NCBI GenBank assembly: GCA_963755715.1
Contig: CAVWLW010000033.1
Coordinates: 224,001-288,000 of the forward strand
Source: an uncultured delta proteobacterium
GTDB lineage: Bacteria > Desulfobacterota > Binatia > UBA9968
Length of the DNA stretch: 64,000 nucleotides
Direction: 5' to 3'
The notes beneath the pieces are model-generated. The model did not search any database and was not told where the DNA came from. It saw only the letters and a program-made list of their open reading frames with translations. The position numbers and the translations under genes are program-made. Positions 7,323 to 42,335 of this stretch are shown here, one piece after another. Position 1 is the stretch's first letter; each line of letters begins with the position of its first letter.

Positions 7323-7354
7323 TCGCAACTGTCGCGCGCGTCAATGGGAGGCGG

Positions 7355-10720: not shown

Positions 10721-10872
10721 CTAATCCTCCTGGGGCTTTACAGCATCTAGCGCATCACGATGATTTTTTTCGGGCTCGACAAACTCGCTTTTTCAATTTC
10801 AATACGGCTGGGAATGGCTGATGTCAAACTCAATTTTTTCTCAGCGAGGCGCCGCTAGGAGATCCGCTTTGT

Positions 10873-11904: not shown

Positions 11905-12129
11905 GACGTTCCCCCTTAGGATTCAAGCGAATTAGTTAGCGCCAGCTGAACGCGCTGCAGCTTAGATAAAATAAAAATATTCGACAATAGCAACTTCGGC
12001 GTTATTTCTCTGAGGATTATTCTCTTAGAGGAATCTCCGAGCGCGGTCTTTACCTAGAATCGACTGAAGCCTCAGGAGAAATTCCAGCGGGCACAAAACT
12101 AACTATCTTGCGTGAGCGTTTCGTCCCCT

Positions 12130-13128
12130 TCACACTGTTACGGAGTCCTCGTGCGATCTCAAAAAATTCTCCCACGCGGAACGTGACGGGGCGACTTTTT
12201 CCTGTAGCTTCTGCTTGCCGCCTTCGCTCATTGGTGTGAAGTTGAGCGCCGCTTGGACGTTTTGTTCGAGCGGCGCGAGTTGTTCGCAGCCGATGATGAC
12301 GCTAGCGACCGGTTGGCTCAAGTTGAACTGCAAAAGCTCGGCGGGGGAGGCGCGACCGGCACCGCTGCCGACGAGCATGCCTTGGCCCATGACTTTCATC
12401 GACAGGATGCCCACGTTTTTCTGCAGCGCTACCGGCAGAGCGGATTGTTCGAAGGCGGGGATCGGTTCCATTTTGCGCTGGGCGACGGGGTTGGCGGATT
12501 GGGCGGCGTTGAGCGACATCAAGACGGTGTCGAAGTCGTGGCGGCGCAAGGCTTCGGCCATGGCGGCGCCGTCGTTGTGGCCGGTGATGCCGATGAAGCG
12601 GACGACTTTCTGTTTTTTCAATTCCTGTATTGCCGCGAGCACGCCGTCGGGTTTGCCGATGCGTTCGAGGTCGTCGAGATTGTTCAAGCTGTGGATCTGA
12701 ATCAGATCCACGTAATCGCTTTGCAAGTACTTTAAACTCGTTTCCACCGAACGGAGCGCGCCGTCACGGTCTCGTGGGTCGATCTTGGTAGCGAGGAAGA
12801 TTTCTTTCCGCCGCGTCTTTAGAAATTCGCCCAGCCGCTTTTCGCTCAATCTTTCGATTGGACGCCGTGTGTACGAACCTGCGGTGTCGAAATAATTGAT
12901 GCCGAAGTCAAACGCTTTCTCCAATAGTGCCTGAGCGGCGTCTTCGTTTTCGATGGAGCAGAAGCGCGTGCCGGAGCCGAAGCCGATGCAGGAAACCATC
13001 TCGCCAGTCTTGCCCAGGCGGCGCTTCGGCAGTGAGCTCGCCGCGCCCCATGATTGTTCCGCCGCGCCGAGCACGACGGCGGCGGTGGTGGTTTTCAGAA
13101 ATTCGCGACGGGACCAACGTGTTTTCAT
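12130..13128 (-). CDS. Aldo/keto reductase with Tat signal peptide
   Basis: SRREFLK Tat motif; INYFDTA..Y, FLATK and DLIQIH catalytic motifs; RBS before ATG 13128. Confidence 0.92.
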   Translation of the reverse strand: MKTRWSRREFLKTTTAAVVLGAAEQSWGAASSLPKRRLGKTGEMVSCIGFGSGTRFCSIENEDAAQALLEKAFDFGINYFDTAGSYTRRPIERLSEKRLGEFLKTRRKEIFLATKIDPRDRDGALRSVETSLKYLQSDYVDLIQIHSLNNLDDLERIGKPDGVLAAIQELKKQKVVRFIGITGHNDGAAMAEALRRHDFDTVLMSLNAAQSANPVAQRKMEPIPAFEQSALPVALQKNVGILSMKVMGQGMLVGSGAGRASPAELLQFNLSQPVASVIIGCEQLAPLEQNVQAALNFTPMSEGGKQKLQEKVAPSRSAWENFLRSHEDSVTV

Positions 13129-13438
13129 AGTGGCTCCTTTCTGGTTGCGCAGCGAGATTTTATCACGGCCATCATAACCCAATTCGCAGTCTCGCTGTCA
13201 ATCCTCATGATTACGCTCTTTCGCTGAGTATCGGCCCGGCCGATCCAATGAATATCTAAGCCGCGACGCTGAGCGCCGGGAGAAAAGTCGCGATGCATCG
13301 TTCGCCGGGCTTTCGTGGGTGGCTCATGTTTCGCCACAATTTGCTATGTCCAAATTGACGCGCCACGACGTTGTCGAATTTTAAGCAGGTACTGCTCCTT
13401 TGGATGAGTGAAACTACAGCAACCAGGAGGTACAAGGG

Positions 13439-17830: not shown

Positions 17831-18823
17831 GTGAGTTCAATGAAATTAAATTTTAACCGACTGTTGTTCTTAGCGCCAATGATTCTGTTCTCATGGCAGA
17901 CAGTTCAAGCGTGGGAACCCACCAAACCCATTGAGTTTGTCATACCGGCCGGCACCGGCGGCGGCGCCGATCAGATGGCGCGGCTGATCAGTGGCATCGC
18001 CGAAAAAAATAAGCTGTCGCCTCGGCCTTTGATCGCCATCAATAAATCGGGCGGCGCCGGGGCTGAGGGATTTCTCTACGTCAAGGAGAAAAAAGGCGAT
18101 CCGCATGTGATCATCATCACGCTGTCCAACCTTTTTACGACTCCACTGCACACCGGGGTGCCATTCAACTGGAAGGACTTAACGCCGATCGCGCGCATGG
18201 CCCTCGATCAGTTTATTCTGTGGGTGAACGCCGAAACGTCCTACAAGACCGCGAAGGAATATATCGCAGCTGTGAAGGCTCAATCGGCCGGAAGCAATAG
18301 AATGAAGATGGGTGGCACGGGCTCGGCGCAAGAAGATCAAATCATCACGATCCAGCTGGAACAGGCGTTGGGAGTCAAGTTTACGTACGTGCCATTTAAA
18401 GGCGGTGGCGAGGTCTGTGTGAATCTGGTCGGCAAGCACATCGATTCGACAGTCAATAATCCCGCCGAATGTGTGAGTCACTGGAAGGCGGGCCGCGTGC
18501 GACCGCTGGCAGTTTTCGACACCGCGCGAATTGCCGATGAGAATTGGAAAGGGATACCTACGATCAAGGAAGCGCTCGGCGCCGACATCCACTATCTCAT
18601 GCTGCGCGGCATCTTCGGCGCGCCCGGAATACCGAAAGATGCCGTGCAATGGTACATCGATTTTCTGAAAAAAGTTTACGATTCGGCAGAGTTCAAGAAA
18701 TATCTTTCCGAAGGCGCGCTGAAGCCCGCGTTTGCGACCGGCGATGAGTACGTCAAGTGGATCGAGGCCAACGAACAGCTCCATAAAGATTTGATGGCCA
18801 AGGGCGGATTGCTCAACAAGTGA
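17831..18823 (+). CDS. tctC: Tripartite tricarboxylate transporter substrate-binding protein
   Basis: PAGTGGGAD, NKSGGAG, VPFKGGGE motifs; first gene of the tctCBA operon. Confidence 0.93.
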   Translation: MSSMKLNFNRLLFLAPMILFSWQTVQAWEPTKPIEFVIPAGTGGGADQMARLISGIAEKNKLSPRPLIAINKSGGAGAEGFLYVKEKKGDPHVIIITLSNLFTTPLHTGVPFNWKDLTPIARMALDQFILWVNAETSYKTAKEYIAAVKAQSAGSNRMKMGGTGSAQEDQIITIQLEQALGVKFTYVPFKGGGEVCVNLVGKHIDSTVNNPAECVSHWKAGRVRPLAVFDTARIADENWKGIPTIKEALGADIHYLMLRGIFGAPGIPKDAVQWYIDFLKKVYDSAEFKKYLSEGALKPAFATGDEYVKWIEANEQLHKDLMAKGGLLNK

Positions 18824-18824
18824 G

Positions 18825-19286
18825 ATGCGCACCGCGGATTTCATCACCGCTGCTATTTTGCTGCTGTTGGGCGTCGTCGTTCTCTTCGATGCCATCCGCC
18901 TCGGTTTCGGTTGGGGCACAGATGGCCCAAAGAGCGGATTCTTCCCGTTTTGGCTGGCGCTCATTATGGTCGTGACTTGTGGATTAATTATTCTTCAGAC
19001 TTTGCGGCGACCGTCCGGTGAAACATTTGTCACGCGGCAACAGCTCGGTCCGGTCCTCAAAGTGATTTGGCCCGCAACGGCGATGGTGCTACTCACGCAT
19101 TTCGTCGGCCTGTATGTCGCCGCTGCCCTTTATATCGGCTTTTACATGCGCTGGGTCGGACGCCACTCCTGGTTTAGCGTAGTTGGAATTGCGGTTGCGG
19201 TCCCTGTTATCAGTTTCGTCATTTTTGAATTGTGGTTCTTGGTGCCGATGCCGAAGGGACCGCTCGAGAACTGGCTGGGCTACTGA
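18825..19286 (+). CDS. tctB: Tripartite tricarboxylate transporter small permease
   Basis: GPKSGFFP and FELWFLVPMPKG motifs; 4-5 TM. Confidence 0.9.
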   Translation: MRTADFITAAILLLLGVVVLFDAIRLGFGWGTDGPKSGFFPFWLALIMVVTCGLIILQTLRRPSGETFVTRQQLGPVLKVIWPATAMVLLTHFVGLYVAAALYIGFYMRWVGRHSWFSVVGIAVAVPVISFVIFELWFLVPMPKGPLENWLGY

Positions 19287-20806
19287 TGGGGCTGGAAAAT
19301 ATTTTTCTCGGGTTTGAGCAGGCACTGGCGCACCAGAACTTGCTTTATGCTGCCATCGGCATCACTCTTGGCACGATCATCGGCGTGCTTCCGGGCTTGG
19401 GCGGCGCAAACGGGGTCGCGATTTTGTTGCCGCTCACACTGCGCATGCCGCCGACCTCGGCGATCATCCTGCTCACATCTATTTATTGGGGAGCGCTGTT
19501 CGGCGGCGCCATCACTTCGGTGCTGTTCAACATCCCCGGCGAGCCGTGGTCCGTGGCGACCACGTTTGACGGTTACCCGCTGGCGCGACAGGGGAAAAGT
19601 GGCCAAGCGCTGACGGCTGCGTTCACTTCCTCGTTCATCGGGGCTCTGTTTGCAACCGTGCTCATCACTTTTTTTGCCCCTCTACTTGCCGACGTGGCGC
19701 TCAGATTCGGCCCGCCGGAAATATTTTCGATTCAACTGCTGACCTTCTCCGCGTTCGTTGGCCTGGGCGGAGGCAATCCTCTTAAAACCGTGGTCTCGAT
19801 CATGATCGGATTTATATTGGCTACGGTTGGTCTCGATATCGTCACTGGGCAGCTGCGCATGACGTTCGGCGTTACCTCGCTCATGCAGGGCTTTGATTTT
19901 ATCATAGCCGTCATCGGCCTCTTCGGGATCGGCGAGATCATGCTTTCCGTCGAGGAAGGGCTGAGCTTCAAAGGGGTCAGCAGCAAGATGAACCTCTTCG
20001 TGGTTCTGGAAACCTGGAAAATTTTGCCGCGCTATTGGCGCACATTCATGCGCAGTTGTCTCATCGGGTTTTGGATGGGCTTCAAACCTGGCGGCGCGAC
20101 TCCCGCTTCGTTCATGAGCTACTCCTTCGCAAAACGCTTCTCCAAAAACCCCGAAGAGTTCGGCAAGGGTGCACTGGAAGGCGTCGTCGCCCCGGAGACA
20201 GCAGCCCATGCCGCAGGTGTCGCGGCGATGCTGCCAATGATCACGCTGGGAATCCCGGGGTCGCCGACTGCGGCCGTGATGCTCGGCGGACTGATCATAT
20301 GGGGACTGCAACCCGGTCCATTGCTCTTCACGGAGAAGCCGGAGTTCGTCTGGGGACTAATCGCGAGCATGTACACCGGCAACATCCTCGGCGTGCTTAT
20401 GGTTCTGGCGTTCGTACCTTTTTTCGCGGCCATTCTGCGCATTCCATTTGCGATTCTCACGCCACTCATCGTCGTGCTCTGCGCTATCGGTTCGTACGCT
20501 GTGCACAACGCCATGATCGATGTTTGGTATATGCTGCTGTTCGGGGTGGTGGGATACGTTTTCAAGAAACTTGATTACCCATTGGCGCCTCTGGTCCTGG
20601 CGCTGGTCCTGGGTGATATGGCGGAGAACGCACTGCGGCAGAGCCTGATCATGTCGCAAGGATCATTGGCCATTTTTCTAAATCGACCGATCGCCGGAGT
20701 GATCACAGCCGTGGCCTTGTTATTTTTCATGATGCCCATCATCACGCCGTGGTGGCGGCGATTACGCGGACTGCCCGCGGCAACGCCGGCTCCTCGGGAA
20801 ATTTGA
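19286..20806 (+). CDS. tctA: Tripartite tricarboxylate transporter large permease
   Basis: GVLPGLG, NIPGE, DGYPLA, TLGIPGS, GLQPGP motifs; TGATG overlap with tctB. Confidence 0.95.
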   Translation: MGLENIFLGFEQALAHQNLLYAAIGITLGTIIGVLPGLGGANGVAILLPLTLRMPPTSAIILLTSIYWGALFGGAITSVLFNIPGEPWSVATTFDGYPLARQGKSGQALTAAFTSSFIGALFATVLITFFAPLLADVALRFGPPEIFSIQLLTFSAFVGLGGGNPLKTVVSIMIGFILATVGLDIVTGQLRMTFGVTSLMQGFDFIIAVIGLFGIGEIMLSVEEGLSFKGVSSKMNLFVVLETWKILPRYWRTFMRSCLIGFWMGFKPGGATPASFMSYSFAKRFSKNPEEFGKGALEGVVAPETAAHAAGVAAMLPMITLGIPGSPTAAVMLGGLIIWGLQPGPLLFTEKPEFVWGLIASMYTGNILGVLMVLAFVPFFAAILRIPFAILTPLIVVLCAIGSYAVHNAMIDVWYMLLFGVVGYVFKKLDYPLAPLVLALVLGDMAENALRQSLIMSQGSLAIFLNRPIAGVITAVALLFFMMPIITPWWRRLRGLPAATPAPREI

Positions 20807-20827
20807 TCGTCGCTTAGAGACTCGTCG

Positions 20828-21511
20828 ATGGAACTAATAGTTCAGCCAGAGTTCTGGGCTCGTTGGCTAGGGATTGTCGTCATCGATCTCTCACTCGCCG
20901 GTGATAATGCTTTAGTGATCGCCATGGCGGTGCTTAGCTTACCCCCTCGGCAACGAATGATTGGCTTGATCGGCGGAACTGTCGGCGCCGTGGTGCTGCG
21001 CATCGTCCTCATCGCGGTCATCACGCAGATACTTCTTATTCCGTTTCTTCAAGCGCTCGGCGGCCTGGTTCTAGTTTGGATCGCCATGAAGCTGGTGCGA
21101 CAGGACGCGAGCGACACGAAGGGGCACAAAGTACGTGAGGTCGCCACACTTTGGGAAGCGATCGGAATCATCATCGTTGCGGACCTGATCATGAGTCTCG
21201 ACAATGTCTTAGCGGTGGCCGCCACCGCGCACGGTGACCTTACACTCGTGCTTTTTGGCATCGGACTTTCCATTCCGATCGTGATTTGCGGCAGCACTCT
21301 GTTGGCGCGCCTTATGGATCGCTTCCGTTGGATCGTGTGGCTCGGTGGAGGCGTGCTTGGCTGGGTGGCGGGAGATCTCGCCATCACTGACACATTGGTC
21401 CGCGCCTCCATCGGCTCGTGGGACTCGATCCTGCATTGGGCTTTGCCTAGCCTGTTGGCTGCTACAGCGATAATGCTGGGCTGGCGGAGTGCTTATGTCG
21501 CGAGCCGATAA
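20828..21511 (+). CDS. TerC-family (YjbE-type) membrane protein
   Basis: IDLSLAGDNALVIA and ADLIMSLDNVLAVA motifs. Confidence 0.93.
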   Translation: MELIVQPEFWARWLGIVVIDLSLAGDNALVIAMAVLSLPPRQRMIGLIGGTVGAVVLRIVLIAVITQILLIPFLQALGGLVLVWIAMKLVRQDASDTKGHKVREVATLWEAIGIIIVADLIMSLDNVLAVAATAHGDLTLVLFGIGLSIPIVICGSTLLARLMDRFRWIVWLGGGVLGWVAGDLAITDTLVRASIGSWDSILHWALPSLLAATAIMLGWRSAYVASR

Positions 21512-21595
21512 CCAGGCGACCGCGGGCAGGTTCTCCTGCGCGAACTGGCTGTCTATCTCTCTTCAAAACTTCGAAAATTTTCTCCTGACCTTCTG

Positions 21596-21638
21596 TTGAC
21601 AACGTGGTCGGGGCTGGATAGAAAACTGGTCTGACCAG
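21596..21638 (+). promoter_or_regulatory. Sigma70-type promoter with FadR/GntR operator
   Basis: TTGACA (21596-21601), 17 bp, TAGAAA; perfect palindrome CTGGTCTGACCAG (21626-21638) fits the FadR-subfamily TNGTNNNACNA consensus, 16 nt before the regulator ATG. Confidence 0.75.
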
Positions 21639-21654
21639 CAGACAGCTGGACCCT

Positions 21655-22349
21655 ATGCTTAAAGTCATAAAAAAGACGCGCATCCACGAGGAAGTTTTCA
21701 GTCAGATTCACGAGCTGATCAAGCAAGGTCGACTCAAGGCCCGCGACCAACTGCCGTCGGAGCGCGAACTGGCCGAGACCTTCAAAGTCAGCAGGACTTC
21801 GGTGCGCGAGGCGCTCCGCACATTGGAAAGTCAGGGGCTCATCGTCAGCAAAACCGGCATGGGCAATTTCGTCGTCGATCTTCCGGTTGAAGCTCTGGTG
21901 GGACCGCTCGCGCGATTGCTGATCGACGAAAAAAAGGCGCTCGCGGATGTCTTCGAGCTGCGCAAGCTGATCGAACCGCATATCGCCGCCTTGGCGGCCG
22001 AGCGCGCAACGGCGACAGACGTCGCGAAACTGAAAAAGATCGTCGCCAAGCAAACCGAAGCGGTGAGTCGCGGCGAGACCGGAGTCGAAGCCGACGCTGA
22101 ATTGCATTTATGCATCAGCCGCGCCACGCAAAATCAGGCGCTGCAGAAATTGGTGTCGGGGTTGATGGAAATGTTCAGCCGCAGCCGCGAAGAGTCGTTG
22201 CAGACGGATAAGCGGCGAAAGGCATCCATCGAGACTCACCGAAGGATCATCGCCGCTATCGAAAAGCATGACCGCATCAAGGCTCGCAAAGAAATGAATT
22301 GCACATCGAGCAGGTCGAAGCGAGCGTGTTGCTGTCCAGCCGGGTATAA
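21655..22349 (+). CDS. FadR/GntR-family transcriptional regulator (frameshift near C-terminus)
   Basis: LPSERELAETFKVSRTSVREAL wHTH plus FCD domain; natural end ...HIEQVEASVLLSSRV* in another frame (TAA 22347-22349). Confidence 0.92.
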
Positions 22350-22390
22350 AAAAACCAGCGTAACGAGGTCACCAAAGAGAGGAGGGTTTG

Positions 22391-23590
22391 ATGATCAAAT
22401 GCGTAGAGGTCAACTATCGAGGTATCTTTCAAAAGAACCTGGGTAAAAAGATCGGCAGCGACATTGTCATGATCGCCAGCCGCATGGGCCAGAAAGCCTT
22501 TTCCAACGGGCGCTACAGCGATTCGCCGGAAAGAAACGGCATCCCGTGCAAGTATTTTGCTTTCGTTTCGCCGGATCTTGCCGAGGAGGAACTGGAAGCG
22601 GAATGCGGCGCCAAGCTCGAGATCGATGAAGCCAACATCTCCGTCGTCTTGGACGACACGATGTGCAAGGGTGTCGAGCCGTGGGGATGGCACGGTATCC
22701 GCCCGATCAATGAACGGGTGGTCAAGGACGGCTGCCTCCTGGTGGTGTCCAAGAAAACACCGGAAGAGCTGTTAAAATTCATCGGCAAGAAGCCGTACAA
22801 CTATCGAATCGCAATCCTCGACGGCGACGCCAGTCTCGCTGGACTTTGGGTCAACAAGGATGACATGACCCATGAGCACATCTTGGGCGGCATCGCAGCC
22901 ATCGATCCGACGCTTATCAGCATCGAGGCGGTTGAAGCTTATCTGATGGACAAGACAAAGCAGAAGCACCGTGTTGAGGCCGCGCGCGCGGCATTCGAGT
23001 CGCTCAGGCAGGAGGCTAAGCCTCCTAAAGTAACGACCGTGACACCGGAAGACGGAATCGTGTGGCTGCATGAGATACCCGTGCTGCCCAAGTGGTTCGA
23101 GATGCAAGAGGGAGCTGTAGTTCCGGCAGTGAAGCGCGGTTTCGAAATGGGACCGAGGGGACAAAACAGAAACCCCGGCTTCAAGCGCGGCACGACCAAG
23201 ACGCAGAGACCCGCGGTCAGGTTCGATCTCTGCACCAAGTGCACGCTCTGCTGGGTCGAGTGTCCGGACGAGTGTTTCGATCCGACCACGGATGGCTTTT
23301 ACGACATCGACTATCAGTATTGCGTCGGTTGCGGGAAATGCGCTCAAGTATGTCCGGTTAAAGAATGCATCGTCATGGTGGATGAACTCCAATTCAAGGA
23401 CGACTCGAGTCCGTGGGAACACTGGAAAAGGGATTCCAACGACTACATTCAGTGGGTAGAGGACAAAAAGGGCAAAGACCGGGTTTCTTACCCCTTCGTC
23501 ACCGGCAAGGGCATGACCGTTACTCAGGGAGATGTGATGCCCGAGGGCAAGATAGTGCCCGTGAGAAAAACCGAGGAGGTCGAAGTATGA
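22391..23590 (+). CDS. oorD: 2-oxoacid:ferredoxin oxidoreductase gamma/delta fusion subunit, oxalate oxidoreductase delta-like
   Basis: Gamma domain (YSDSPER) plus two CxxCxxCxxxCP [4Fe-4S] motifs and DELQFKD; delta-alpha-beta gene order. Confidence 0.75.
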   Translation: MIKCVEVNYRGIFQKNLGKKIGSDIVMIASRMGQKAFSNGRYSDSPERNGIPCKYFAFVSPDLAEEELEAECGAKLEIDEANISVVLDDTMCKGVEPWGWHGIRPINERVVKDGCLLVVSKKTPEELLKFIGKKPYNYRIAILDGDASLAGLWVNKDDMTHEHILGGIAAIDPTLISIEAVEAYLMDKTKQKHRVEAARAAFESLRQEAKPPKVTTVTPEDGIVWLHEIPVLPKWFEMQEGAVVPAVKRGFEMGPRGQNRNPGFKRGTTKTQRPAVRFDLCTKCTLCWVECPDECFDPTTDGFYDIDYQYCVGCGKCAQVCPVKECIVMVDELQFKDDSSPWEHWKRDSNDYIQWVEDKKGKDRVSYPFVTGKGMTVTQGDVMPEGKIVPVRKTEEVEV

Positions 23591-24830
23591 GTGTCGCACT
23601 CGCAACAGCCAAATCAGATCAATCAGGGGTCTACGAGCGGGAAGACCTTTTAAACGGCTGCCAGGCGGTCGCGCAGGGCGTGTGTCTCGCCGACGTGGAT
23701 GTGATCGCCGCTTATCCGATCCGTCCCTACACCGAAGTGATGGACGCCCTCTCGAAGCTGATCGCCGACGGGAAATTCGACGCCGAGTACATCATCGCCG
23801 ACAGCGAGCATTCCCAATTCGAGATCGTCAAGCACGCCAGCTCGGTGAACGCGCGCGCCTTCGGCGGTTCGAGCGGCACGGGCTGGATGTACGGTATGGA
23901 AGCGCTGGTCGTTACCGCGACCGACCGTCTTCCGCCTCTTTTCGTGGTCGGCAACCGCGCTTTGGATGATCCCGGCGCTTTCGGCGTCGAGCACAACGAC
24001 GCGATGTCGGTCCGCGACATGGGCTGGCTTCTCTGCTGGGTCACGACGCCGCAGGAGGCGCTCGAACACGTGCTGATCGGCTACCGCATCGCCGAGGACA
24101 AGACAGTCAGGATGCCGATGGGATTGGCGATGGACGGCGCCTTTCTCACCCACTCGCAACACATGGTCAAAATCCCATCGGTGGAGGCGGCGAAGAAATT
24201 CCTGCCGCAGTACGATCTCGCCGAGCGGCGGCTCCATCCCGACAACCCGATCTCGGTCGCGCCGCAAGCCAACGAGGATTGGGTTATGGAGATTCGCAGG
24301 CAAAATTGGGAAGCCGCCAAGCGGGCGCGCGGTGTCATCAAGGATGCTTATAAGGAATTCAACGATATTTTCGGCGATCGCTACGCCGCGCCTTACTATT
24401 TCGACGAGTTCATGACCGACGACGCGGAAGCGGTCCTGATCGGCGTTGGTACGGTGGCAGCTCCAGCGCGCACGGCGGTCAGGCGCTTGCGTGAGAAGGG
24501 ACAGAAGGTCGGCTACGTGGAATCTGCGCTGGTTCCGGCCCTTCCCGACGGTGGAGCTGCGCGAGTCCCTGAGCCGCTTTAAAGCGGTCGGTGTCGTCGA
24601 CAGGGACTTCGCTCACGGCTCGCCCGACAATTGCGGCATCTTGATGCACGAAGTCCGATCCTGCCTCTATCCGGCGAAGAACCGGCCGGCGATCGTTAAT
24701 TTCATGGGTGGTTTGGGCGGGCGCGATCTGTCGATCGCCGACTGCTCAGAAGATGTTCGAAATCACCCAACAGGCGGCGAAGAAAGATTCCCTGGATGAA
24801 TACGTAACCTGGATCGGCCTAAGAGAGTAA
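23587..24830 (+). CDS. oorA: 2-oxoacid:ferredoxin oxidoreductase alpha subunit, oxalate oxidoreductase-like (frameshifts in 3' part)
   Basis: LADVDVIAAYPIRPYT, SEHS, GSSG, NRALDDPGAFG, FRPFP, GGLGG; ATGA overlap with delta; ends ...WIGLRE*. Confidence 0.78.
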
Positions 24831-24844
24831 ATAGGAGAAACATT

Positions 24845-25840
24845 ATGTCGACCGTACCGACAATCGATTACGAGAAAGTCAAAGGCGTTCACAAAATTCC
24901 GCTGGAAGAGCTCTATACTTCCGGCCATCGGACCTGCCAGGGCTGCGAGTCGGCGACGACCATGCGCGGCTTCATCAAGGTTGCGGGTTCGCGCTCGGTG
25001 GTCACAGGAGCAACCGGTTGCATGTACGTGGCCAACACTTCGTACATGACCACGCCGTGGATCGTGCCGTGGATGCACACGCAGCTCGGCGCCGGCGGCT
25101 CTTCGGCCGTGGGCATGGCGGCGGGCCTGCGAGCGCTCAAGCGCAAGGGCAAGATCAAAGACGAGAAGATCAACGTCATCAATTTCTCCGGCGATCTCGG
25201 CGCCGGCGATATGGGCATCGGCGGCATCTCCGCCGCGTTGCAGAGCGATTACGACTTGCTGATTATCATGTACGACAACGAATCGGCCGCCAATACCGAT
25301 ATCCAAGCAACAGGCTCGACGACTTACGGCGCGCAGACGACCTTCACGCCTCCGGGAACCAAGCATCCGATCATGCAGAGGCGCTGGAAGAAGAACGTCG
25401 CCGGCATGCTTGCCGTCGGCCATCCGACCTGCCGTTACGTTGCCACTGCCTGCGCTACCTTTCCGCCGACGGATTATCTGAACAAGGTCCAAAAGGCGCT
25501 CGCCATCGGCGGCCCGACCTTCATCCACACCTACGATCCCTGTCCAAAGGGTTGGGACTATCATCCGCGCTACTCCAACGAGCTTGGCGAGTTGGGAATC
25601 AAATGCGGCATCTATCCGCTGTATGAAATCGTCGACGGCAACGTCATTTACACCTGGGACGCGCGCAAGACGGGCAAGGGACGCATTCCGGTCAAGGAGT
25701 TTATCTCCAAGCAGGGGCGCTTCGATCATCTCAAAGAAGAACACTACGCGCATATTCAAAACATGGTCGATCAAATGTGGGAAGAGTGGCAGATTCCCGG
25801 TGTCGCGCCATTGCGAGGGATTCTGAAGGCTAGGATTTAG
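24845..25840 (+). CDS. oorB: 2-oxoacid:ferredoxin oxidoreductase beta (ThDP-binding) subunit, oxalate oxidoreductase-like
   Basis: GHRTCQGC, TGCMYVANTSY.TTPW, GD...YDNES.ANT, TTFTPPG, PCPKGW. Confidence 0.78.
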   Translation: MSTVPTIDYEKVKGVHKIPLEELYTSGHRTCQGCESATTMRGFIKVAGSRSVVTGATGCMYVANTSYMTTPWIVPWMHTQLGAGGSSAVGMAAGLRALKRKGKIKDEKINVINFSGDLGAGDMGIGGISAALQSDYDLLIIMYDNESAANTDIQATGSTTYGAQTTFTPPGTKHPIMQRRWKKNVAGMLAVGHPTCRYVATACATFPPTDYLNKVQKALAIGGPTFIHTYDPCPKGWDYHPRYSNELGELGIKCGIYPLYEIVDGNVIYTWDARKTGKGRIPVKEFISKQGRFDHLKEEHYAHIQNMVDQMWEEWQIPGVAPLRGILKARI

Positions 25841-25888
25841 GGAAACTGCGGCAATAAGCTTTCCGCTTCGGTTCTGCCCAATTAACTC

Positions 25889-25928
25889 CCGCTGACATGC
25901 ACGGACGAAAGGCCGCGCATGTCAGCGG
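25889..25928. terminator. Strong hairpin after the oxidoreductase operon (terminator or stabiliser)
   Basis: 12-bp perfect stem CCGCTGACATGC/GCATGTCAGCGG; no clear U tract. Confidence 0.5.
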
Positions 25929-26332
25929 TGAGAAGATTTTATCAAGCCAAACATCGCCGATCGCCACGTGCGACGCTCGTCGATAGACCGCCACTCAGTG
26001 GACGGGTGTAAAGCTTGAGCACGACCGCTAGATTCTGTATCCTAAGGAGGAAGCTTGAGAGACTGCAAGCATCGGCGAGTAAACGAACAGGTAGACCAAG
26101 CGTTCCAGACCTAAGTCTGACAGTTCATCCGCGCGATATTTGTCTCAGCTTTACAAAAAGATTTTTCACGCGCTGAGTTAGACCGTTGAATAACGAACGG
26201 GCCGGCAAAGCGATGCTTAATGTGCTTGCCGCGGTCGATCGCGCTGAATAGGTCTGTTGGCCAGTCGACGCTGGATTGGCTTGCAACGGTCGAACTTAAT
26301 TTTTTCAGGCAACGAGTCGAAGGGAGGCAATC

Positions 26333-28045
26333 ATGGCAACGACCGGCGAAACTAAAAAAGAAGCTAGCGGCCCAGTGATCTCCGGCGGGCATCTGGTCGC
26401 CAAAGCGTTAAAGAATGAAGGCGTCGAAGTGATCTGGACGCTTTGCGGCGGCCATATCATCGACATCTACGACGGCTGCATCGACGAAGGCATCAAGATC
26501 ATCGACGTGCGCCATGAGCAGGTCGCGGCCCACGCCGCCGACGGCTACTCACGCCAGAGCGGGAAGATCGGTTGTGTCGTAACGACCGCCGGACCGGGCA
26601 CGACTAACGCGATGACGGGCATCGCCAATGCCTTTCGCGCCGAGAGTCCGCTCTTGATGATCGGCGGGCAGGGCGCGCTCTCGCAGCACAAGATGGGCTC
26701 CCTGCAAGATCTGCCGCACGTCGATATCATGTCGCCGATAACGAAATTCGCCGCCACCGTGCCGCATACAGAACGCATCGCCGACATGGTGTCGATGGCT
26801 TTTCGCGAGTCGGTGAACGGGGCGCCGGGGCCGAGCTATCTCGAAATCCCGCGTGACGTGCTCGACGCTAAAGTGCCGCTCGAACGGGCGCGTATCCCCA
26901 AGCCTGGTGCCTATCGCGCCTCGACTAAATCTGTCGGCGATCCGGCCGACATTGAAAAACTTGCAGACATTCTGGCCAAATCCGAACGGCCGGCAGCATT
27001 GTTCGGTACCCAGGTCTGGACCTGTCGCGGCCACGATGCGGCGGTGGAATTTTGCCGCGCTCTCAATGTTCCCGGTTACATGAACGGCTCAGGACGCGGC
27101 ATCTTCGCGCCCGGCGATCCGCATGGTTTCAATCGCACGCGTAGTTTGGCGTTCGACAAAGCCGACGTGATCCTGATCGTCGGCTGTCCGTTCGATTTTC
27201 GTCTCGGTTATGGGAGGCGTTTGCGCGCCGATGCGACCGTCGTGCAGATCGATCTCGATTATCGCAACGTCGGCAAGAACCGCGACGTTTCGCTCGGCAT
27301 GGTCGGCGATTGCGGCGCGATTCTCAAGGCCGTAGAGCAGGCCGCGTCCGGCCGCGCCTCGAAAGGCAACGCGCAGCGCGCCGAGTGGATGAAAGAGCTC
27401 CGCGCCGCGGAGGCCAAGGCGTACGAAAAACTCTTGCCGTCGTTCAAATCGGAGTCCGTGCCGATCAATCCTTATCGGGTCGCTTACGAGATCAACGAAT
27501 TTCTGACCGACAACACGGTTTACATCGGCGACGGCGGCGATGTGGTCACGATCACCGCGACGGCCGTGGAGCCGCGCAAAGCCGGCAACTGGATGGATCC
27601 GGGTCCGCTCGGCACGCTCGGTGTCGGCACTTCGTTCGCGATGGCGACCAAGTTCGTTCATCCGAAAAAAGAAGTGCTGTGCTACTACGGCGACGGCTCG
27701 TTCGGCATGACGGCGTGGGACATGGAAACCGCGCAGCGCTTCAAATTGCCCTACATGGCCGTGATCGGCAACAACTCAGCGATGAATCAGATCCGCTGCG
27801 GCCAGATCGGTAAGTATGGTCCCGAGCGCGGCGGCGTGGGCAATAAGCTTGGCGACGTGGATTTCGAGAAATTCGCCGACTGTTTCGGTGGCTGGGGCAT
27901 CGCGGTGCGCGAGCCGAGCCAGATTCGTCCCGCGTTGGAAAAAGCGCGCGAACGGGTCGCCGGCGGTCAGTGTGCCATCGTCAACATCTGGGTCGACATC
28001 AATGAATACGCGCCAGGCACCAAGGCGCAGACGATGTACAAATGA
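26333..28045 (+). CDS. ThDP-dependent enzyme, oxalyl-CoA decarboxylase/2-hydroxyacyl-CoA lyase-like
   Basis: LCGGHI, RHEQ.AAHAADGY, TAGPG, PGPLGTLGVG, GDGSFG...NNS motifs; directly upstream of frc. Confidence 0.85.
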   Translation: MATTGETKKEASGPVISGGHLVAKALKNEGVEVIWTLCGGHIIDIYDGCIDEGIKIIDVRHEQVAAHAADGYSRQSGKIGCVVTTAGPGTTNAMTGIANAFRAESPLLMIGGQGALSQHKMGSLQDLPHVDIMSPITKFAATVPHTERIADMVSMAFRESVNGAPGPSYLEIPRDVLDAKVPLERARIPKPGAYRASTKSVGDPADIEKLADILAKSERPAALFGTQVWTCRGHDAAVEFCRALNVPGYMNGSGRGIFAPGDPHGFNRTRSLAFDKADVILIVGCPFDFRLGYGRRLRADATVVQIDLDYRNVGKNRDVSLGMVGDCGAILKAVEQAASGRASKGNAQRAEWMKELRAAEAKAYEKLLPSFKSESVPINPYRVAYEINEFLTDNTVYIGDGGDVVTITATAVEPRKAGNWMDPGPLGTLGVGTSFAMATKFVHPKKEVLCYYGDGSFGMTAWDMETAQRFKLPYMAVIGNNSAMNQIRCGQIGKYGPERGGVGNKLGDVDFEKFADCFGGWGIAVREPSQIRPALEKARERVAGGQCAIVNIWVDINEYAPGTKAQTMYK

Positions 28046-28090
28046 CAGCTGCCTAGAGCAAAACCGGACGCGAAGACGCAAGCATGGCAT

Positions 28091-28172
28091 TCACCACGAA
28101 GGACACGAAGAGCACGAAGTTCGGAATATCAATAGTACGAACCCTTCGTGTCCTTCGTGATCTTCGTGGTGA
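28091..28172. repeat. Inverted repeat element built from CACGAAG 9-mer units
   Basis: TCACCACGAAGGACACGAAGAGCACGAAG ... CTTCGTGTCCTTCGTGATCTTCGTGGTGA. Confidence 0.85.
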
Positions 28173-28203
28173 GATTGAATTTTCTTAAGGAGAAAATAAG
28201 TCG

Positions 28204-29444
28204 ATGGCAAAAGCGCTTGATGGAGTTCGCATACTCGATATGACCCACGTGCAGTCCGGGCCGACTTGCACGCAAATGTTGGCGTGGTTCGGCGCCGACG
28301 TGATCAAAGTCGAACTGCCCGGCCGCGGCGACATCACGCGCGGCCAACTGCGCGACAAGCCGAATGTCGACAGCCTCTATTTCACCATGCTCAATTGCAA
28401 CAAGCGGAGCATCACGATCAATACCAAAACGAAAAGGGCAAAGAAATTTTTCGCGAACTGATCAAGGTGTTGTGACGTGATCGTGGAGAACTTCGCGCCC
28501 GGAGCGCTGGACCGGCAAGGGTTCACTTGGGAAGCGATTCACGGGCTCAATCCGCGGATCATTTACGCGTCGGTGAAGGGCTTCGGACCCGGTCCTTACG
28601 AAGATTGCAAAGTTTACGAGAACGTCGCCCAGTGCACCGGCGGTGCGGCGAGCACGACCGGATTCGACGACGGCCCGCCGCTGGTGACCGGCGCGCAGAT
28701 CGGCGACTCCGGCACCGGGATGCATTTCGTCGCCGGAATTTTGCGGCGCTTTTTCAACGTGAAAAAGGCTGGAAGGGGACAGCGCGTCACTTGCGCGATG
28801 CAGGATACGGTGCTCAATCTCTGCCGTGTCAAGCTGCGTGATCAACAACGACTCGCCGCCGGACCGCTGGAGGAATATCCGCAATATCCCAATGGCGTCT
28901 TCGGCGACGCCGTGCCGCGCGCGGGCAATGCATCGGGCGGCGGCCAGCCGGGCTGGGCGGTGCGCACCAAAGGCGGCGGACCGAACGATTATATTTACGT
29001 CATCATTCAGCCGCCGGGTTGGGAGCCGTTGATGAAGCTCTGCGGCCGGCCCGAGCTGATCACCGATCCTGAATGGGCGACGCCGGAAAAGCGTTTGCCG
29101 AAGCTCGGTCAATGTTTCGAGATCATCGAGCAGTGGACGATGACCCTCGATAAGTTGGAGGTCATGCGCAAGCTCAACGAGATTCGACGTGCCGTGCGGG
29201 CCGATCCTCGACATGCGCGAGATCGCGGAAGAGCGAGCGCTGCGCGAAACCGGCACGGTCGTCGAAGTGGATCATCCGAAGCGGGGAAAATTTCTGACGG
29301 TCGGTAATCCGATCAAGCTGTCGGATTCGCCGACGGATGTTAAACGTCGCCGTTCCTGGGCGAGCACACGGACGAGATCTTGCGATCCATCGTCGGCTGG
29401 AGCGATCAGAGATGACGACGGCGCGAAAAGAGGGCGCGATCTAA
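28204..29444 (+). CDS. frc: Formyl-CoA:oxalate CoA-transferase (class III), frameshifted
   Basis: [36 protein letters not shown], catalytic [10 protein letters not shown], glycine loop [10 protein letters not shown] across ORFs 28204, 28477 and 29189. Confidence 0.92.
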
Positions 29445-29525
29445 ATCCTGCAACCCTGAGGCGACAAAACTGATTCACCACAAATTTGTACGGTTCGATT
29501 TTGGTTTAGATCGAACTGCGTTCAA

Positions 29526-29604
29526 GAAAGATTTCTCGCTTCCCGCTCGAAATGACATTCGCTATTGCACGACTGTCATCTCGAACGAATGTGAGAGATC
29601 TTTC
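29526..29604. repeat. REP-like inverted doublet
   Basis: GAAAGATTTCTC...TCGAAATGACA and TGTCATCTCGA...GAGAGATCTTTC in inverted orientation. Confidence 0.75.
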
Positions 29605-29663
29605 TAAATCCAACAGCGCGCGCTTCATAAGCGCCCAACCTAACCGAATTTTCGGAGGTGTCG

Positions 29664-31774
29664 ATGAATAAAAAAACTTTGCGCGCCACGATCAACTCCG
29701 ACTCGCCGCCGGACGCGGGCTTAAGCGCGCCGAGGCGCAAGAATTCTGCGACGCCTACGGTATTCCGACGCCGAAACAAGCGCTAGCGAAAACTGCAGCC
29801 GAAGCGGTGAAAATCGCTGCACGATTAGGGTTCCCCGTCGTCCTAAAAATTGTCTCGGACGATATTCTTCACAAAACCGAAGCGGGTGGCGTGATCGTTG
29901 GACTCAATAATGCAGCTGATGTTCGGCGCGCTTTCGATCGTCTCGTCAAAAACGCCAAGGGATACAAGAAAAACGCCAGCATCCAAGGTGTTCAGGTCCA
30001 ACAGATGCTCAAGGGCGGACAGGAAGTCCTGGTCGGCGCTGTGACGGATCCGAGTTTTGGCAAAATGATTGCGTTCGCTTTGGGCGGCGTACTGGTCGAA
30101 GTGATGAAAGACATCACGTTTCGCATGACGCCGGTCGGCAAGAAAGAGGCGCTCTCGATGCTGGATTCAATTGCCGCGGCGGAAGTGCTGCGCGGCGTGC
30201 GCGGCGCGAAAGGCGTGAGCCGCTCCGCGCTGGCCGATATCATCGCCAAAGTTTCCAAGATGGTAAACGATTTTCCCGAGATTCTCGAAGTCGACCTCAA
30301 TCCGATCTTCGCGACGGAGAAGGGCGCGCGCGCCGTCGATGTGCGTATCGTGATCGGCGATAAGCCGCAAACGCGCCAGCATTTCGATCAAAGCGCGATT
30401 CTCGCCGCCATGCAGCGTATCATGAACCCGCGCTCCGTCGCCGTAATCGGCGCTTCCGCCGAGGACGGCAAGATCGGCAACTCCGTGATGAAAAATCTCA
30501 TTAACGGCGGCTATCAGGGCGCGATCTATCCGATCCATCCGAAAGCTCAGGAGATCCTGGGGCGCAAGGCCTATCCGAGCGTGCTCGACGTCGCCGAGGA
30601 AATCGACGTCGCAGTGTTCGCGATACCGGCGAAATTTTGCGCCGCGGCGATGGATGAAGTGGGGCGGAAAAAAATTCCCGGCGCGGTCATGATTCCTTCC
30701 GGCTTCGCCGAGGTCGGCGAGCAGGCGCTGCAAGACGAGCTGCTCGGCGTCGCCCGCAAGCACAACGTGCGCATCATGGGGCCGAATATTTACGGATTTT
30801 ATTACACGCCGCAAAATCTCTGCGCGACTTTCTGCACTCCTTACGACGTCAAGGGCAAAGTCGCGCTCAGCTCGCAATCGGGCGGGGTCGGCATGTCGAT
30901 CATCGGCTTTTCGCGCACCACGCGCATGGGCGTGTCGGCGATCGTCGGATTAGGCAACAAATCGGACCTCGATGAAGACGATCTGCTGACCTATTTCGAG
31001 CAGGACGAAAACACTCAAGTCATCGCCATGCATTGCGAGGATTTAAAAGACGGCCGGTCTTTCGCCGAAGTAGCAAGCCGCGTTTCAAAAAAGAAACCCA
31101 TCGTCATGCTCAAGGCGGGCCGCACGGCGCTGGGCGCGCGCGCCGCGGCATCGCACACCGGCGCCTTGGCCGGCAACGACAAGATCTACGACGACGTGCT
31201 GCGCAATTGCGGCGTCATTCGGGCGAAGAGTTTAAACGATATGTTGCAGTTCGCGCGCGGCCTGCAAGTGCTGCCGACGCCGAAGGGAGAAAATATCGTG
31301 ATCATCACCGGAGCCGGCGGATCGGGCGTTCTCTTGTCGGATGCCTGCGTCGACAACGGCTTGTCGCTCATGAAAATGCCGCCGGACATGGACGCCGCGT
31401 TTCGCAAATTTATCCCGCCCTTCGGCGCCGCCGGCAATCCCGTCGACATCACCGGCGGCGAGCCGCCGACGACTTATGCGAACACGATTCGCTACGCGCT
31501 CGGCGAGCCGCGCATTCATTCGCTGATTCTCGGCTACTGGCACACGATCATCACGCCGCCGATGGTCTTCGCCAAACTTTGCGCCGAAGTTGTTCAAGAA
31601 GCGCGCGACAAAGGCATCGATAAACCGGTGGTAGCGTCACTCGTCGGCGACGTGCAGGTGGAAGAGGCGAGCGAGTATCTCTACGAGCGCGGCATCGTGG
31701 CTTATCCGTACACGACGGAGCTGCCGGTTGCGGTGCTCGGCGCGAAGTACAAATGGGCGCGCGGGGCGGGGTGA
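29664..31774 (+). CDS. ADP-forming acyl-CoA synthetase (acetate-CoA ligase family; N-terminal ATP-grasp, then CoA-binding and ligase domains), 5' frameshifts
   Basis: GFPVVLKI...ILHKTEAGGV, DLNP, VAVIGAS, GPN, SQSGG, phospho-His SHTG, GNPVD; GGAGG RBS before ATG 29664. Confidence 0.9.
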
Positions 31775-31981
31775 TGTAGATTAAGTTGTACAGTCGGAGG
31801 GTAATCAAAGTGATAGTTGTTCGATTGGTGGCCGTCAGGTAGTGAAGCGAAGGGTCGGCAGATTGACCCGCCAAGCTCAGTTTATCTAAGAGACTCTGCG
31901 ACCTTATTGTTTTTTCCACCCGAGCCACAAAGTTTCCATCGAGACATCGCTCAAGGACGCGAAAAGAGTTATTCATTATTC

Positions 31982-39365: not shown

Positions 39366-39638
39366 GCAGGCCTCCTTTCAAAATCGCTGATTTAAACAAA
39401 GGGGCGGCTTTCAATGTCAAACAGTGCGTCGACGAGTATCTTCATTGCGGCACCTCTTCGTTCGATTTCTAGAAAGAAAAAATTCCATAAGACAACATGC
39501 CGGGCTCGCCGCGCTTAGGGCGGGAATCTTATCAAGATTCAAGAAGCTGTCAGTAGCTTCTGCGCGCTTCACCAGGGAAACGAAATCCACAACACATTTA
39601 GATTGATCAGAGTGATGTCATACCCCATGGGCGTTCCC

Positions 39639-42037: not shown

Positions 42038-42335
42038 CGGAAGCAACCCTCATCCGATTTGCTGAGGTTGAAATAGCTGTTGACGATTCGTTTACCACAC
42101 CTTGCGGGCAGGGGAGAAGGCGAATGGAGGAAGAGCGTGGATGCGAGGCGAGAAGTCATAGGTGCCCGTCAAACTCAGTTTGACCCGTTATACGCAGACT
42201 CGTTATACGTAGCGAAAGAATGTCGAATGTTGGGGTATAGCGGAAAATCTTAAGCAACAACGCTCGCGCGTTCTGCGGGCTGCAATAGACACGTTTCTGC
42301 TGTGAAATTTCCACAAGATCAGTTTGGAGGCGCAG

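Follow-up and report, generated by a model that had tools for sequence, protein, structure and literature searches.

The DNA considered here is a 64,000-nt stretch (the window) of contig CAVWLW010000033.1, positions 224,001 to 288,000, from the genome assembly GCA_963755715.1 of an uncultured delta proteobacterium placed among the Binatia. At positions 17,831 to 31,774 it carries a run of genes that probably represents two adjacent, separately transcribed oxalate modules of different chemistry in a Binatia-like soil bacterium. The first module comprises genes for a tripartite tricarboxylate transporter (TTT), a TerC-family protein, a GntR regulator, and a three-subunit 2-oxoacid:ferredoxin oxidoreductase (OFOR) related to oxalate oxidoreductase (OOR). 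The second comprises genes for a thiamin diphosphate (ThDP) enzyme, formyl-CoA:oxalate CoA-transferase (Frc), and an ADP-forming acyl-CoA ligase. Gene content, family placement, motifs, fold, operator, and neighborhood statistics were examined directly, and the proposal is built on them.

An earlier reading made from the letters of this DNA alone (the sequence-only reading) had described the run as tctC-tctB-tctA-terC-gntR, three OFOR genes, a ThDP gene, frc, and a ligase gene. All of these genes are present between 17,831 and 31,774, all lie on the plus strand, and their order is the one described. The OFOR genes had been named delta, alpha, and beta. Three genes do exist, but the first is not delta alone, being a fusion of gamma (domain III) with delta (ferredoxin domain V). 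The window's genome assembly amounts to 7.4 Mb in 76 contigs at 56% GC, and CheckM-type estimates put it at 93.6% complete and 4.2% contaminated. The closest named relatives of the window's genes belong to metagenome-assembled genomes (MAGs) labeled Candidatus Binatia or "Deltaproteobacteria". The features of the cluster are as follows.

17831..18823, plus strand: TctC, periplasmic binding protein of the TTT transporter (Pfam PF03401, 94.5 bits)
18825..19286, plus strand: TctB, small membrane subunit (Pfam PF07331, 60.4 bits)
19286..20806, plus strand: TctA, large membrane subunit (Pfam PF01970, 506 bits); the reading frame opens at 19232 and the likely start is an ATG near 19286
20828..21511, plus strand: TerC-family membrane protein of the YjbE subfamily, putative metal transport (Pfam PF03741; TIGR03717, 204.9 versus a cut-off of 134.8)
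21627..21637, no strand assigned: palindromic FadR-type operator TGGTCTGACCA, 18 nt upstream of gntR
21655..22385, plus strand: GntR regulator of the FadR subfamily, winged helix-turn-helix (wHTH) plus FCD domain (Pfam PF00392 and PF07729); the C-terminal ~30 residues are out of frame
22391..23590, plus strand: OFOR gamma-delta fusion, domain III plus a domain V for two [4Fe-4S] clusters (Fer4 domains at residues 279–330)
23587..24830, plus strand: OFOR alpha, domains I–II, with YPIRPYT and RALDDPGAFG (Pfam POR_N and PFOR_II in two reading-frame pieces)
24845..25840, plus strand: OFOR beta, the ThDP/[4Fe-4S] domain VI, intact (266.8 bits to OOR beta, 5c4i_C)
25886..25932, plus strand: terminator-like hairpin (inverted repeat) followed by a U-rich stretch, ~45 nt past the beta stop codon
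26013..26043, plus strand: promoter-like block, GCTTGAGC, 17 nt, then TATCCT, ~290 nt upstream of the ThDP gene
26333..28045, plus strand: three-domain ThDP enzyme of the HACL/Oxc/ALS superfamily (Pfam TPP_enzyme_N, M, and C)
28091..28172, no strand assigned: long palindromic repeat element (inverted repeat) between the ThDP gene and frc (-45.8 kcal/mol, z -7.8)
28204..~29455, plus strand: Frc, over the TIGR03253 cut-off when read through; frame broken
~29664..31774, plus strand: ADP-forming acyl-CoA ligase (Pfam ATP-grasp, CoA-binding, Succ_CoA_lig, and Ligase_CoA_2 in one chain)

The transporter genes can be assigned to TctCBA by the presence of PF03401, PF07331, and PF01970 within one operon, and homologs of its TctC (40–84% identity) adjoin both OOR-like operons and ThDP-frc modules. 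The cluster is not tightly packed, with gaps of 492 nt between the beta and ThDP genes, 158 nt between the ThDP gene and frc, and ~200 nt between frc and the ligase gene.

Every substrate and reaction in the mechanism that we propose is a prediction, as are the CoA independence of the OFOR, its electron acceptor, the direction in which the ligase runs and its use for priming, and whatever TerC contributes. For module 1 (tctCBA-terC, gntR, and the OFOR gamma-delta, alpha, and beta genes), the TTT transporter would import oxalate, and the FadR-type GntR protein would sense oxalate or a close metabolite and control the gntR-OFOR operon via the palindrome TGGTCNGACCA. The three-subunit OFOR would oxidize oxalate to two CO2 without CoA and pass two low-potential electrons via three [4Fe-4S] clusters to a ferredoxin-type acceptor; the cluster itself encodes no such acceptor. 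In module 2 (ThDP enzyme, frc, and ligase), which would have its own promoter, Frc would move CoA from formyl-CoA to oxalate, and the ThDP enzyme, as a noncanonical analog of oxalyl-CoA decarboxylase (Oxc), would decarboxylate oxalyl-CoA to formyl-CoA and CO2. The ligase might prime or refill this labile thioester pool at a cost of ATP, and the formate would be passed to a formate dehydrogenase whose gene lies elsewhere in the genome. The genome carries a formate dehydrogenase alpha equivalog (806.6 versus a cut-off of 666) and one OOR-like OFOR.

A broader proposal is put forward tentatively, with somewhat less than even confidence. Soil bacteria and archaea of many phyla may use an unrecognized CoA-free oxalate:ferredoxin oxidoreductase, which has Asp113 and Ala116 for Pro113 and Asp116, and an Frc-coupled ThDP decarboxylase without the Oxc signature residues may replace Oxc. 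In Binatia, the two would adjoin as electron- and formate-yielding branches, supplied by a TTT importer and under the control of a GntR type found at the head of ThDP-frc modules elsewhere.

Kinship of the two enzyme families

Judged by profiles, predicted fold, and phylogeny, the window OFOR is a member of a large uncharacterized sister clade of the OOR of Moorella thermoacetica and is not a pyruvate:ferredoxin oxidoreductase (PFOR). The alpha subunit, taken from the intact copy in the related locus L001, scores 321.5 bits against Moorella OOR (5c4i_A) versus 203 against a Methanosarcina-type PFOR (9bt4_B), and the score of the beta subunit against OOR beta compares with 169.4 bits against PFOR beta. 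The best PDB sequence match of the fused gamma-delta chain is 5c4i_B, at 67.8 bits. Among NCBIfam models, those for OOR are the top match for all three subunits and PorA/PorB come second (for beta, 333 for OOR versus 260 for PorB). The subunit architecture is also that of OOR: alpha with domains I–II, beta with domain VI, and one chain in which III and V are fused. When this fused chain was modeled with AlphaFold2 (AF2) from a 25-row alignment (pLDDT 77.5) and searched with Foldseek, delta chains of Moorella OOR filled ranks 1–8 (E 5.6e-18, TM to target 0.73–0.80, ~345 columns covering both domains). PFOR came after OOR, at E 3e-10.

A library search with the intact L001 alpha chain returned few full-length representatives above 40% identity. 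One of the representatives, P0130, is a true OOR equivalog (583 versus a cut-off of 500), P0121 and P0127 resemble the query, and for the remaining 26 the best models are those of PorA. A quick IQ-TREE maximum-likelihood tree of 48 alpha chains unites P0130, P0127, and clades A and B in a single clade (SH-aLRT 100, branch length 0.71) apart from the 26 PorA/VorA-like representatives. The clade of the window is sister to OOR rather than nested inside it. Phylogeny had been named by the sequence-only reading as the way to check its OOR assignment, with placement in a PFOR clade as the outcome that would speak against it; in this tree, alpha branches with OOR and not with PFOR or its 2-ketoisovalerate counterpart.

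The Moorella enzyme (EC 1.2.7.10; PDB 5C4I, 5EXD, and 5EXE; NCBIfam NF045790–NF045792) thus shares with the window OFOR a three-subunit make-up with fused III and V, is its nearest solved relative for all three chains, and falls in the same clade of the alpha tree. In the window the genes run in the order fused subunit, alpha, beta. The fused subunit is ~85 residues longer than its Moorella counterpart, and its domain III is very divergent. The hosts also differ, since the OOR-like clade is found in soil Binatia, Acidobacteriota, Chloroflexota, Rokubacteria, and archaea rather than in an acetogen. The window enzyme is further set apart by its GntR/operator and TctCBA companions.

The available portions of one structural report (PMC5020499) describe OOR as distinguished by a YPIRP motif, in which Arg31-alpha stands in place of the Thr of YPITP and binds the charged substrate. 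The same portions describe Arg109-alpha as a carboxylate anchor common to other OFORs, and assign Arg31 and Asp116 to a bait-and-switch mechanism. YPIRPYT is present in the alpha chains of the window and of L001 as well as in the OOR equivalog P0130, and YPIRP is kept in all 74 related loci that cover the site. PorA-type representatives have PITP with unrelated loops. The equivalent of Arg109-alpha is also present (VVGNR versus AIADR). Although two OOR-like subclades are only ~57% identical overall, YPIRP and the loop RALDDPGAFG are invariant in both.

The second enzyme family is that of the ThDP protein. The sequence-only reading had assigned this half of the locus to the classical Oxc/Frc route, and of this pair Frc stands as a true equivalog whereas Oxc does not, the ThDP enzyme belonging to a different family without the Oxc binding residues. 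When read through one TGA, frc scores 525.6 on TIGR03253 versus a cut-off of 504.2 over profile positions 2–331, with a further 70.8 bits over positions 326–385. It is the only one of 41 family-III CoA-transferase matches in the genome to pass the Frc cut-off. Those 41 matches, spread over many contigs, make up a very large paralog family for one genome. The ThDP enzyme reaches 220.7 versus a cut-off of 739.4 and 233.6 versus 557 on the two Oxc models (TIGR03254 and NF006721). Its best NCBIfam match is PRK05858, "acetolactate synthase" (ALS), at 431.6 versus a cut-off of 587, and the model for 2-hydroxyacyl-CoA lyase (HACL) gives 323. The family is large, is 74–78% conserved across phyla, and is marked by a two-residue insertion in an NNSAMNQIR segment and by an invariant C-terminal lid, APGT[RK]xQTMYK.

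Genomic context argues that this ThDP family is the working partner of Frc, and an oxalyl-CoA decarboxylase of separate lineage is the function that we consider most likely for it. In a set of 80 metagenome loci, frc lies directly downstream of the ThDP gene (within 600 nt) in 56 of the 58 with at least 1 kb of flank. The exceptions are L162, where a ligase gene follows instead, and L193. A ligase gene follows ThDP-frc in 22 of 37 loci. TctA is found upstream of the frc-linked ThDP gene in 7 of the 39 loci with at least 4 kb upstream, and no OFOR was found in those 39. A phylum sample of 401 genomes is uninformative on the family: it gave ThDP matches in 34, only at 34–48% identity apart from the window genome's own, and none within 1.5 kb of frc. 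Canonical Oxc is lacking from the window's genome, where none of 10 matches is over the cut-off.

By comparison with the Oxc-Frc systems of Oxalobacter formigenes and Escherichia coli (oxc-frc, b2373-b2374), the arrangement is alike in that a ThDP enzyme of the same superfamily is encoded immediately upstream of a true Frc. The window protein differs in sharing 25% identity with E. coli Oxc and in carrying the two-residue insertion and distinct lid described above. An ADP-forming ligase and a TTT importer also replace the OxlT or YfdV context of those systems. The ligase falls below the cut-off on all NCBIfam ADP-forming models (acetate, 3-hydroxypropionate, and 4-hydroxybutyrate ligases). Glyoxylate carboligase was not found over its cut-off in the window's genome, and an assimilation branch through the glycerate pathway is therefore unsupported.

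Operon boundaries, the GntR operator, and distribution

The OFOR and ThDP-frc-ligase modules are predicted to be separate operons because the DNA between them holds a terminator-like hairpin and a conserved promoter-like block and no second GntR operator. The hairpin after the beta gene has a 16-bp stem (-34.1 kcal/mol, z -6.9) that precedes the U-rich stretch, and the related locus L004 keeps it despite a changed sequence (-27.3 kcal/mol, z -5.2). Some 130 nt beyond this hairpin, the block GCTTGAGC-N17-TATCCT is the only strongly conserved part of the 492-nt spacer. It is common to L001, L004, L005, L006, L017, L119, and L088, the last of which is the window's own genome. The cluster contains one copy of the GntR operator, upstream of gntR.

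A single regulon for the whole cluster was considered and rejected, since the lone TGGTCTGACCA site (at most two mismatches) is the one upstream of gntR. The suggestion in the sequence-only reading that both branches answer to one regulator is consequently not borne out, given the single operator and the hairpin and promoter-like block that separate the modules. A consensus promoter and terminator scan gave fewer sites than shuffled sequence and was uninformative. The ~290-nt leader from the promoter-like block to the ThDP start (26046–26335) has several blocks that are conserved in Binatia loci, and has no Rfam match. It may hold a protein-binding site or a small regulatory element. For a structured leader RNA upstream of the ThDP gene, the RNAalifold consensus over five sequences is weak (-11.7 kcal/mol over ~300 columns) and no claim is made.

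The distribution of the two modules also bears on their independence. OOR-like loci were collected by a scan of species-representative genomes, which returned 80, and neighbors were identified by tblastn with the window proteins. Eleven form a Binatia-like set with beta at least 87% identical to that of the window, and nine of these have at least 1.5 kb downstream. ThDP-frc, with or without the ligase gene, follows the OFOR in five of the nine (L001, L004, L006, L017, and L019) and is absent downstream in the other four (L003, L007, L008, and L009). Among the other 69 loci, frc is nearby in one (L012). The linkage of OFOR to frc, for which the sequence-only reading had advised a neighborhood search, therefore holds in about half of the close relatives and is restricted to their lineage. 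The genomes of L003, L007, L008, and L009 and one Vicinamibacterales genome, all of a completeness not known, gave no close ThDP homolog (E 1e-120 or better) and no Frc equivalog. The resulting picture is of a self-sufficient OOR-like operon beside which a ThDP-frc-ligase operon has been set in one Binatia lineage.

The hosts of the 80 loci are Binatia, Acidobacteriota (including Vicinamibacterales), Chloroflexota, Rokubacteria, Methylomirabilota, Armatimonadota, Thermodesulfobacteriota, Thaumarchaeota, Thermoplasmata, and Bathyarchaeota. Across them a GntR homolog occurs in 45; where at least 1 kb upstream is available (65 loci), the gene just before that of the fused chain encodes it in 34. 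TctA (at least 45% identity) is found in 16 of the 80 and TerC in 3; the gene order TctCBA-TerC-GntR is seen again in L072, L073, and L078. For 13 OOR-like loci without tct genes, the neighbors are mostly unrelated genes and are uninformative.

The palindrome TGGTCNGACCA has 37 exact occurrences in 35 of the 80 loci, and all but two of these lie 26–171 nt upstream of gntR (28 cases) or of the fused-chain gene (7 cases). Accordingly, the GntR protein and the palindrome are a conserved predicted regulator-operator pair for the OFOR operon. Within the window cluster, TGGTCTGACCA at 21627–21637 is the only site with at most two mismatches. When three mismatches are allowed there are 100 matches versus 112 expected, and a looser PdhR-like pattern gives 19 versus 16.6 expected. 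The GntR protein scores below every named NCBIfam equivalog cut-off. It resembles the FadR-subfamily regulators with TGGT-N3-ACCA operators (PdhR, LldR, GlcC, and NanR) in its wHTH and FCD architecture, and its perfect palindrome stands just upstream of its own gene. The operators of PdhR and LldR have TGGTNNNACCA as their core. The window type differs from the named regulators in what it heads, namely OOR-like operons and, in L121, a ThDP-frc module. A GntR protein 79–84% identical to that of the window is encoded directly upstream of ThDP-frc in both L120 and L121, and L121 also has the same operator.

Two loci place candidate oxalate transporters near the OFOR. In L012, from an Acidobacteria MAG, a divergently oriented frc (415 aa, CoA_transf_3) borders the gntR-OFOR operon, and at a distance of two genes there is a major facilitator superfamily (MFS) protein that passes the OxlT equivalog TIGR04259 (591.9 versus a cut-off of 335). 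In L022, from Thaumarchaeota, an OFA-family MFS protein just under the cut-off is divergently adjacent to the OOR-like operon.

Metal transporters also recur beside this operon: TerC/YjbE in the window, L072, L073, and L078, and Nramp directly downstream in L021 (Vicinamibacterales; 11172–12647). It is speculation to tie them to the uptake of metal-oxalate complexes. In L042, from a Bathyarchaeota MAG (4462–7378), the genes divergently upstream of the OOR-like operon encode a PanE/ApbA-family reductase and another ThDP enzyme, one that NCBIfam shows to be ALS-like. A PanE-family protein acts as an oxalyl-CoA reductase in Methylobacterium extorquens.

Oxalate weighed against other substrates

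Oxalate is supported as the substrate of the locus because the GntR type and TctCBA are common to both modules and because an OxlT equivalog and frc lie beside the OFOR in L012. A number of findings weigh on the other side. The OFOR subunits fall below the NCBIfam OOR cut-offs (alpha, from the intact L001 copy, 367 versus 500; beta 333 versus 590; delta 93 versus 230). Domain III can barely be aligned to that of OOR by sequence (11.5 bits), which is why loss of the CoA site cannot be read from it. Asp116-alpha is replaced by Ala, the loop being RALDDPGAFG in 76 of 76 loci versus RTLDPPGDFG in OOR. At many OOR-like loci, neither a transporter nor a regulator suggests oxalate. For the ThDP enzyme, the best solved relatives are HACL and the corresponding synthase, HACS (8vza at 258 bits; AcHACL at 244), ahead of E. 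coli Oxc at 180 bits and O. formigenes Oxc (OfOXC) at 147. Y118, E119, Y478, and S550 of E. coli Oxc correspond in the window to L124, Q125, I487, and A565, so that the carboxylate-binding Tyr and Ser of Oxc are replaced. In the window assembly, gntR, alpha, frc, and the start of the ligase gene are out of frame. Finally, no assayed member of either enzyme family was found in the literature searched.

For the OFOR, the database labels suggest an ordinary CoA-dependent pyruvate or 2-ketoisovalerate:ferredoxin oxidoreductase. The source records call homologs "pyruvate ferredoxin oxidoreductase beta subunit" or "pyruvate synthase", and the PorA/PorB models are the second-best NCBIfam matches. We regard this assignment as extremely improbable in view of the branching of alpha with the OOR equivalog, the PIRP in place of PITP, the OOR-type fusion of III and V, and the neighbors gntR, tctCBA, oxlT, and frc. 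A more serious competitor, though still an unlikely one, is that the substrate is a different small anionic 2-oxoacid, taken up through TctCBA, and that CoA may take part. Glyoxylate, mesoxalate, oxaloacetate, and oxamate would be such substrates; from glyoxylate and CoA the enzyme would make formyl-CoA, a direct feed for Frc and the ligase. Such a role would suit the loss of Asp116-alpha, the invariant switch loop that departs from that of OOR, the subthreshold equivalog scores, and the divergence of domain III. TTT transporters and FCD regulators, moreover, handle many carboxylates. Against it stand the retention in 74 of 74 loci of Arg31-alpha, which would bind a second carboxylate, the OxlT equivalog and frc that adjoin the OFOR in L012, and the same regulator type and operator at the head of the ThDP-frc module in L121. 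Glyoxylate in particular has no second charge that would require Arg31. The earlier designation of an OOR-like enzyme thus keeps its kinship and its YPIRP motif and is qualified by the sister-clade position, the scores below the equivalog cut-offs, and the missing Asp116-alpha. As far as the sequence indicates, the window OFOR has the substrate-binding hallmark of OOR without the proposed switch residue, and Asp113 is a candidate stand-in for Asp116.

For module 2, the competing explanation is that no oxalate cycle operates and that the ThDP enzyme is of the 2-hydroxyacyl-CoA lyase/synthase type, with glycolyl-CoA, lactyl-CoA, or a comparable ester as its substrate. Activation of the hydroxy acid would then fall to the ligase, and recycling of formyl-CoA onto that acid to the Frc-like transferase. 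The solved HACL and HACS enzymes (AcHACL 7PT1, RuHACL 6XN8, and HACS 8VZA), a family that has formyl-CoA as a common product, are ahead of both Oxc proteins by score, and the NCBIfam HACL model is ahead of the Oxc models (323 versus 221–234). The residues of the active site can be compared through an alignment of the ThDP enzyme with E. coli K-12 Oxc, in which the OfOXC positions were converted to E. coli numbering by offset. The Tyr120/Glu121 pair of Oxc is Tyr-Glu in E. coli and is replaced in the window by Leu-Gln, as in HACL and ALS. In the portions available of a study of these enzymes (PMC8760513), OfOXC is described as binding the oxalyl carboxylate with Tyr483 and Ser553, where HACL and ALS rely on a Gln and AcHACL also on Glu493. 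Gln125 of the window aligns with this glutamine, the Oxc Tyr and Ser are missing, and the same or N/V substitutions are found at the Oxc signature positions in six relatives.

Despite these resemblances, we consider a hydroxyacyl-CoA lyase distinctly unlikely here. The window enzyme has no acid/base Glu at the AcHACL E493 position, where it has NQI, and no long AcHACL lid domain; the basic residue of its own invariant lid could bind a carboxylate. Its family adjoins frc in nearly every locus, often with TctCBA, and the partner transferase passes the equivalog cut-off for an Frc acting on oxalate. The genome also has no other Oxc to pair with that Frc.

No paper describing either enzyme family or their arrangement was found in the literature, where the primary OOR papers, which were not covered, may discuss homologs or neighbors. 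Four observations appear to be new at the level of sequence: the OOR-like and ThDP-frc modules side by side in Binatia, the signs that each is an operon of its own, a GntR type whose gene and operator stand at the head of the OFOR operon in different phyla and of a ThDP-frc module in one locus, and the L012 locus with its OOR-like operon and OxlT. In soils, where oxalate is of major importance both as a carbon compound and as a chelator of metals, its microbial turnover is usually tracked by frc and oxc. If the proposal of an oxalate-specific pair is correct, oxalotrophy surveys that rely on oxc overlook much of the soil oxalate sink, and those that rely on frc overlook genomes that have only the oxidoreductase. 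Both enzyme families of the locus would do the job of the textbook enzymes differently, one being of an oxidoreductase type so far known from a single thermophilic acetogen and the other a decarboxylase family that now carries the database label "acetolactate synthase". In the four Binatia-like genomes and the one Vicinamibacterales genome with an oxidoreductase operon and no Frc or ThDP partner found (completeness not known), the oxidoreductase would be the sole route. The Binatia arrangement offers a natural system for comparing two oxalate routes, with clean alleles for expression in L001, L017, and L019, and the GntR-operator pair is a candidate oxalate sensor.

Frame breaks and other features of the window

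The frame breaks of the cluster were mapped by comparing the window with four relatives of the same gene order. Alpha has a +1 at 24519 and another at 24743, both in the window alone. Seven single-base indels confined to the window interrupt frc (28433, 28464, 28740, 28760, 29182, 29346, and 29408), further ones lie in the spacer, and the ligase gene shifts frame three times within its first ~100 nt, which scrambles the N-terminal ~35 codons (versus L017, L019, and L004). A 1-nt deletion near 22299 affects gntR (versus L017, L019, and L006). No indels occur across the 3.9 kb of the gamma-delta, beta, and ThDP genes.

We consider these breaks very probably to be consensus errors in a strain-mixed stretch and not gene decay, because near-identical contigs lack several of them, the relatives are in frame, and rpoB of the window's genome is intact (one 1378-codon frame). 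The frc gene is a single frame in L001, L004, L017, L019, and L118. Soil contigs from three DNA runs of different studies and one RNA library (X15) were compared over 22300–31800; one DNA run may be the source sample, which makes this evidence less than fully independent. Near-identical contigs from X1 and X5 (DNA) and X15 (RNA) have 0–4 other differing letters over 500–1400 nt around alpha. The extra base at 24519 is absent at full depth in X1 (13.8/13.8) and X5 (14.9/14.9), and the one at 24743 is absent in X1, X5, and X15. The frame of frc is corrected in part by the soil contigs: a base is added at 28433 in all three, and one is dropped at 28465 in X1 and X15, X5 correcting 28433 only. The contigs over the OFOR genes from the RNA library do not show transcription. 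Uncovered stretches in X3 and X15 and depth peaks at repeat elements were not used as evidence.

Were alpha and the CoA branch instead decaying pseudogenes in this strain, the cluster would be a relic. The sheer number of breaks (two in alpha, seven in frc, one in gntR, and three at the ligase start) speaks for this, as does their clustering, with none in the gamma-delta, beta, and ThDP genes and with rpoB intact. We nevertheless judge decay very unlikely. The X1, X5, and X15 contigs do not share the extra bases in alpha and repair the first breaks of frc to the extent given above, and contigs that carry the window's own frc/ligase allele show few substitutions with 8–12 gaps. The substitution identity of frc to its relatives is 82–86%, a divergence no greater than that among the relatives themselves. 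The indel cluster crosses the intergenic spacer and stops after the first 100 nt of the ligase gene. It starts approximately where identity to L001 falls from ~98% to 89%, and this coincidence suggests a strain-mixed consensus.

Beyond the cluster genes, several minor features were recorded. Short repeat elements lie at 28091–28172 and 29525–29557, where many unrelated soil contigs pile up with loose ends to depths of up to 400–540; the palindrome at 28091–28172 consists of CACGAAGG-type units. Such a pile-up is as expected of an element like the repetitive extragenic palindromic (REP) sequences common in soil bacteria. Rfam gave no matches at gathering scores across the whole window. Some genes elsewhere in the window have partial Pfam profile cover (formamidase/acetamidase, 202–371 of 373; amidase, 23–259 of 445; aldo-keto reductase, 17–201 of 291), and are located at 9734–11922, 3883–6240, and 12130–13197. 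These partial matches suggest further indel errors in the contig. The flanks of the window resemble a patchwork of catabolic genes for small acids and amides, including several amidohydrolases, an arylmalonate-decarboxylase-like gene, and an FAA-hydrolase gene. They also encode four NMT1/THI5-like periplasmic binding proteins, and flank genes were noted at 6228–7322, 38379–39377, 41036–42049, and 57602–58699.

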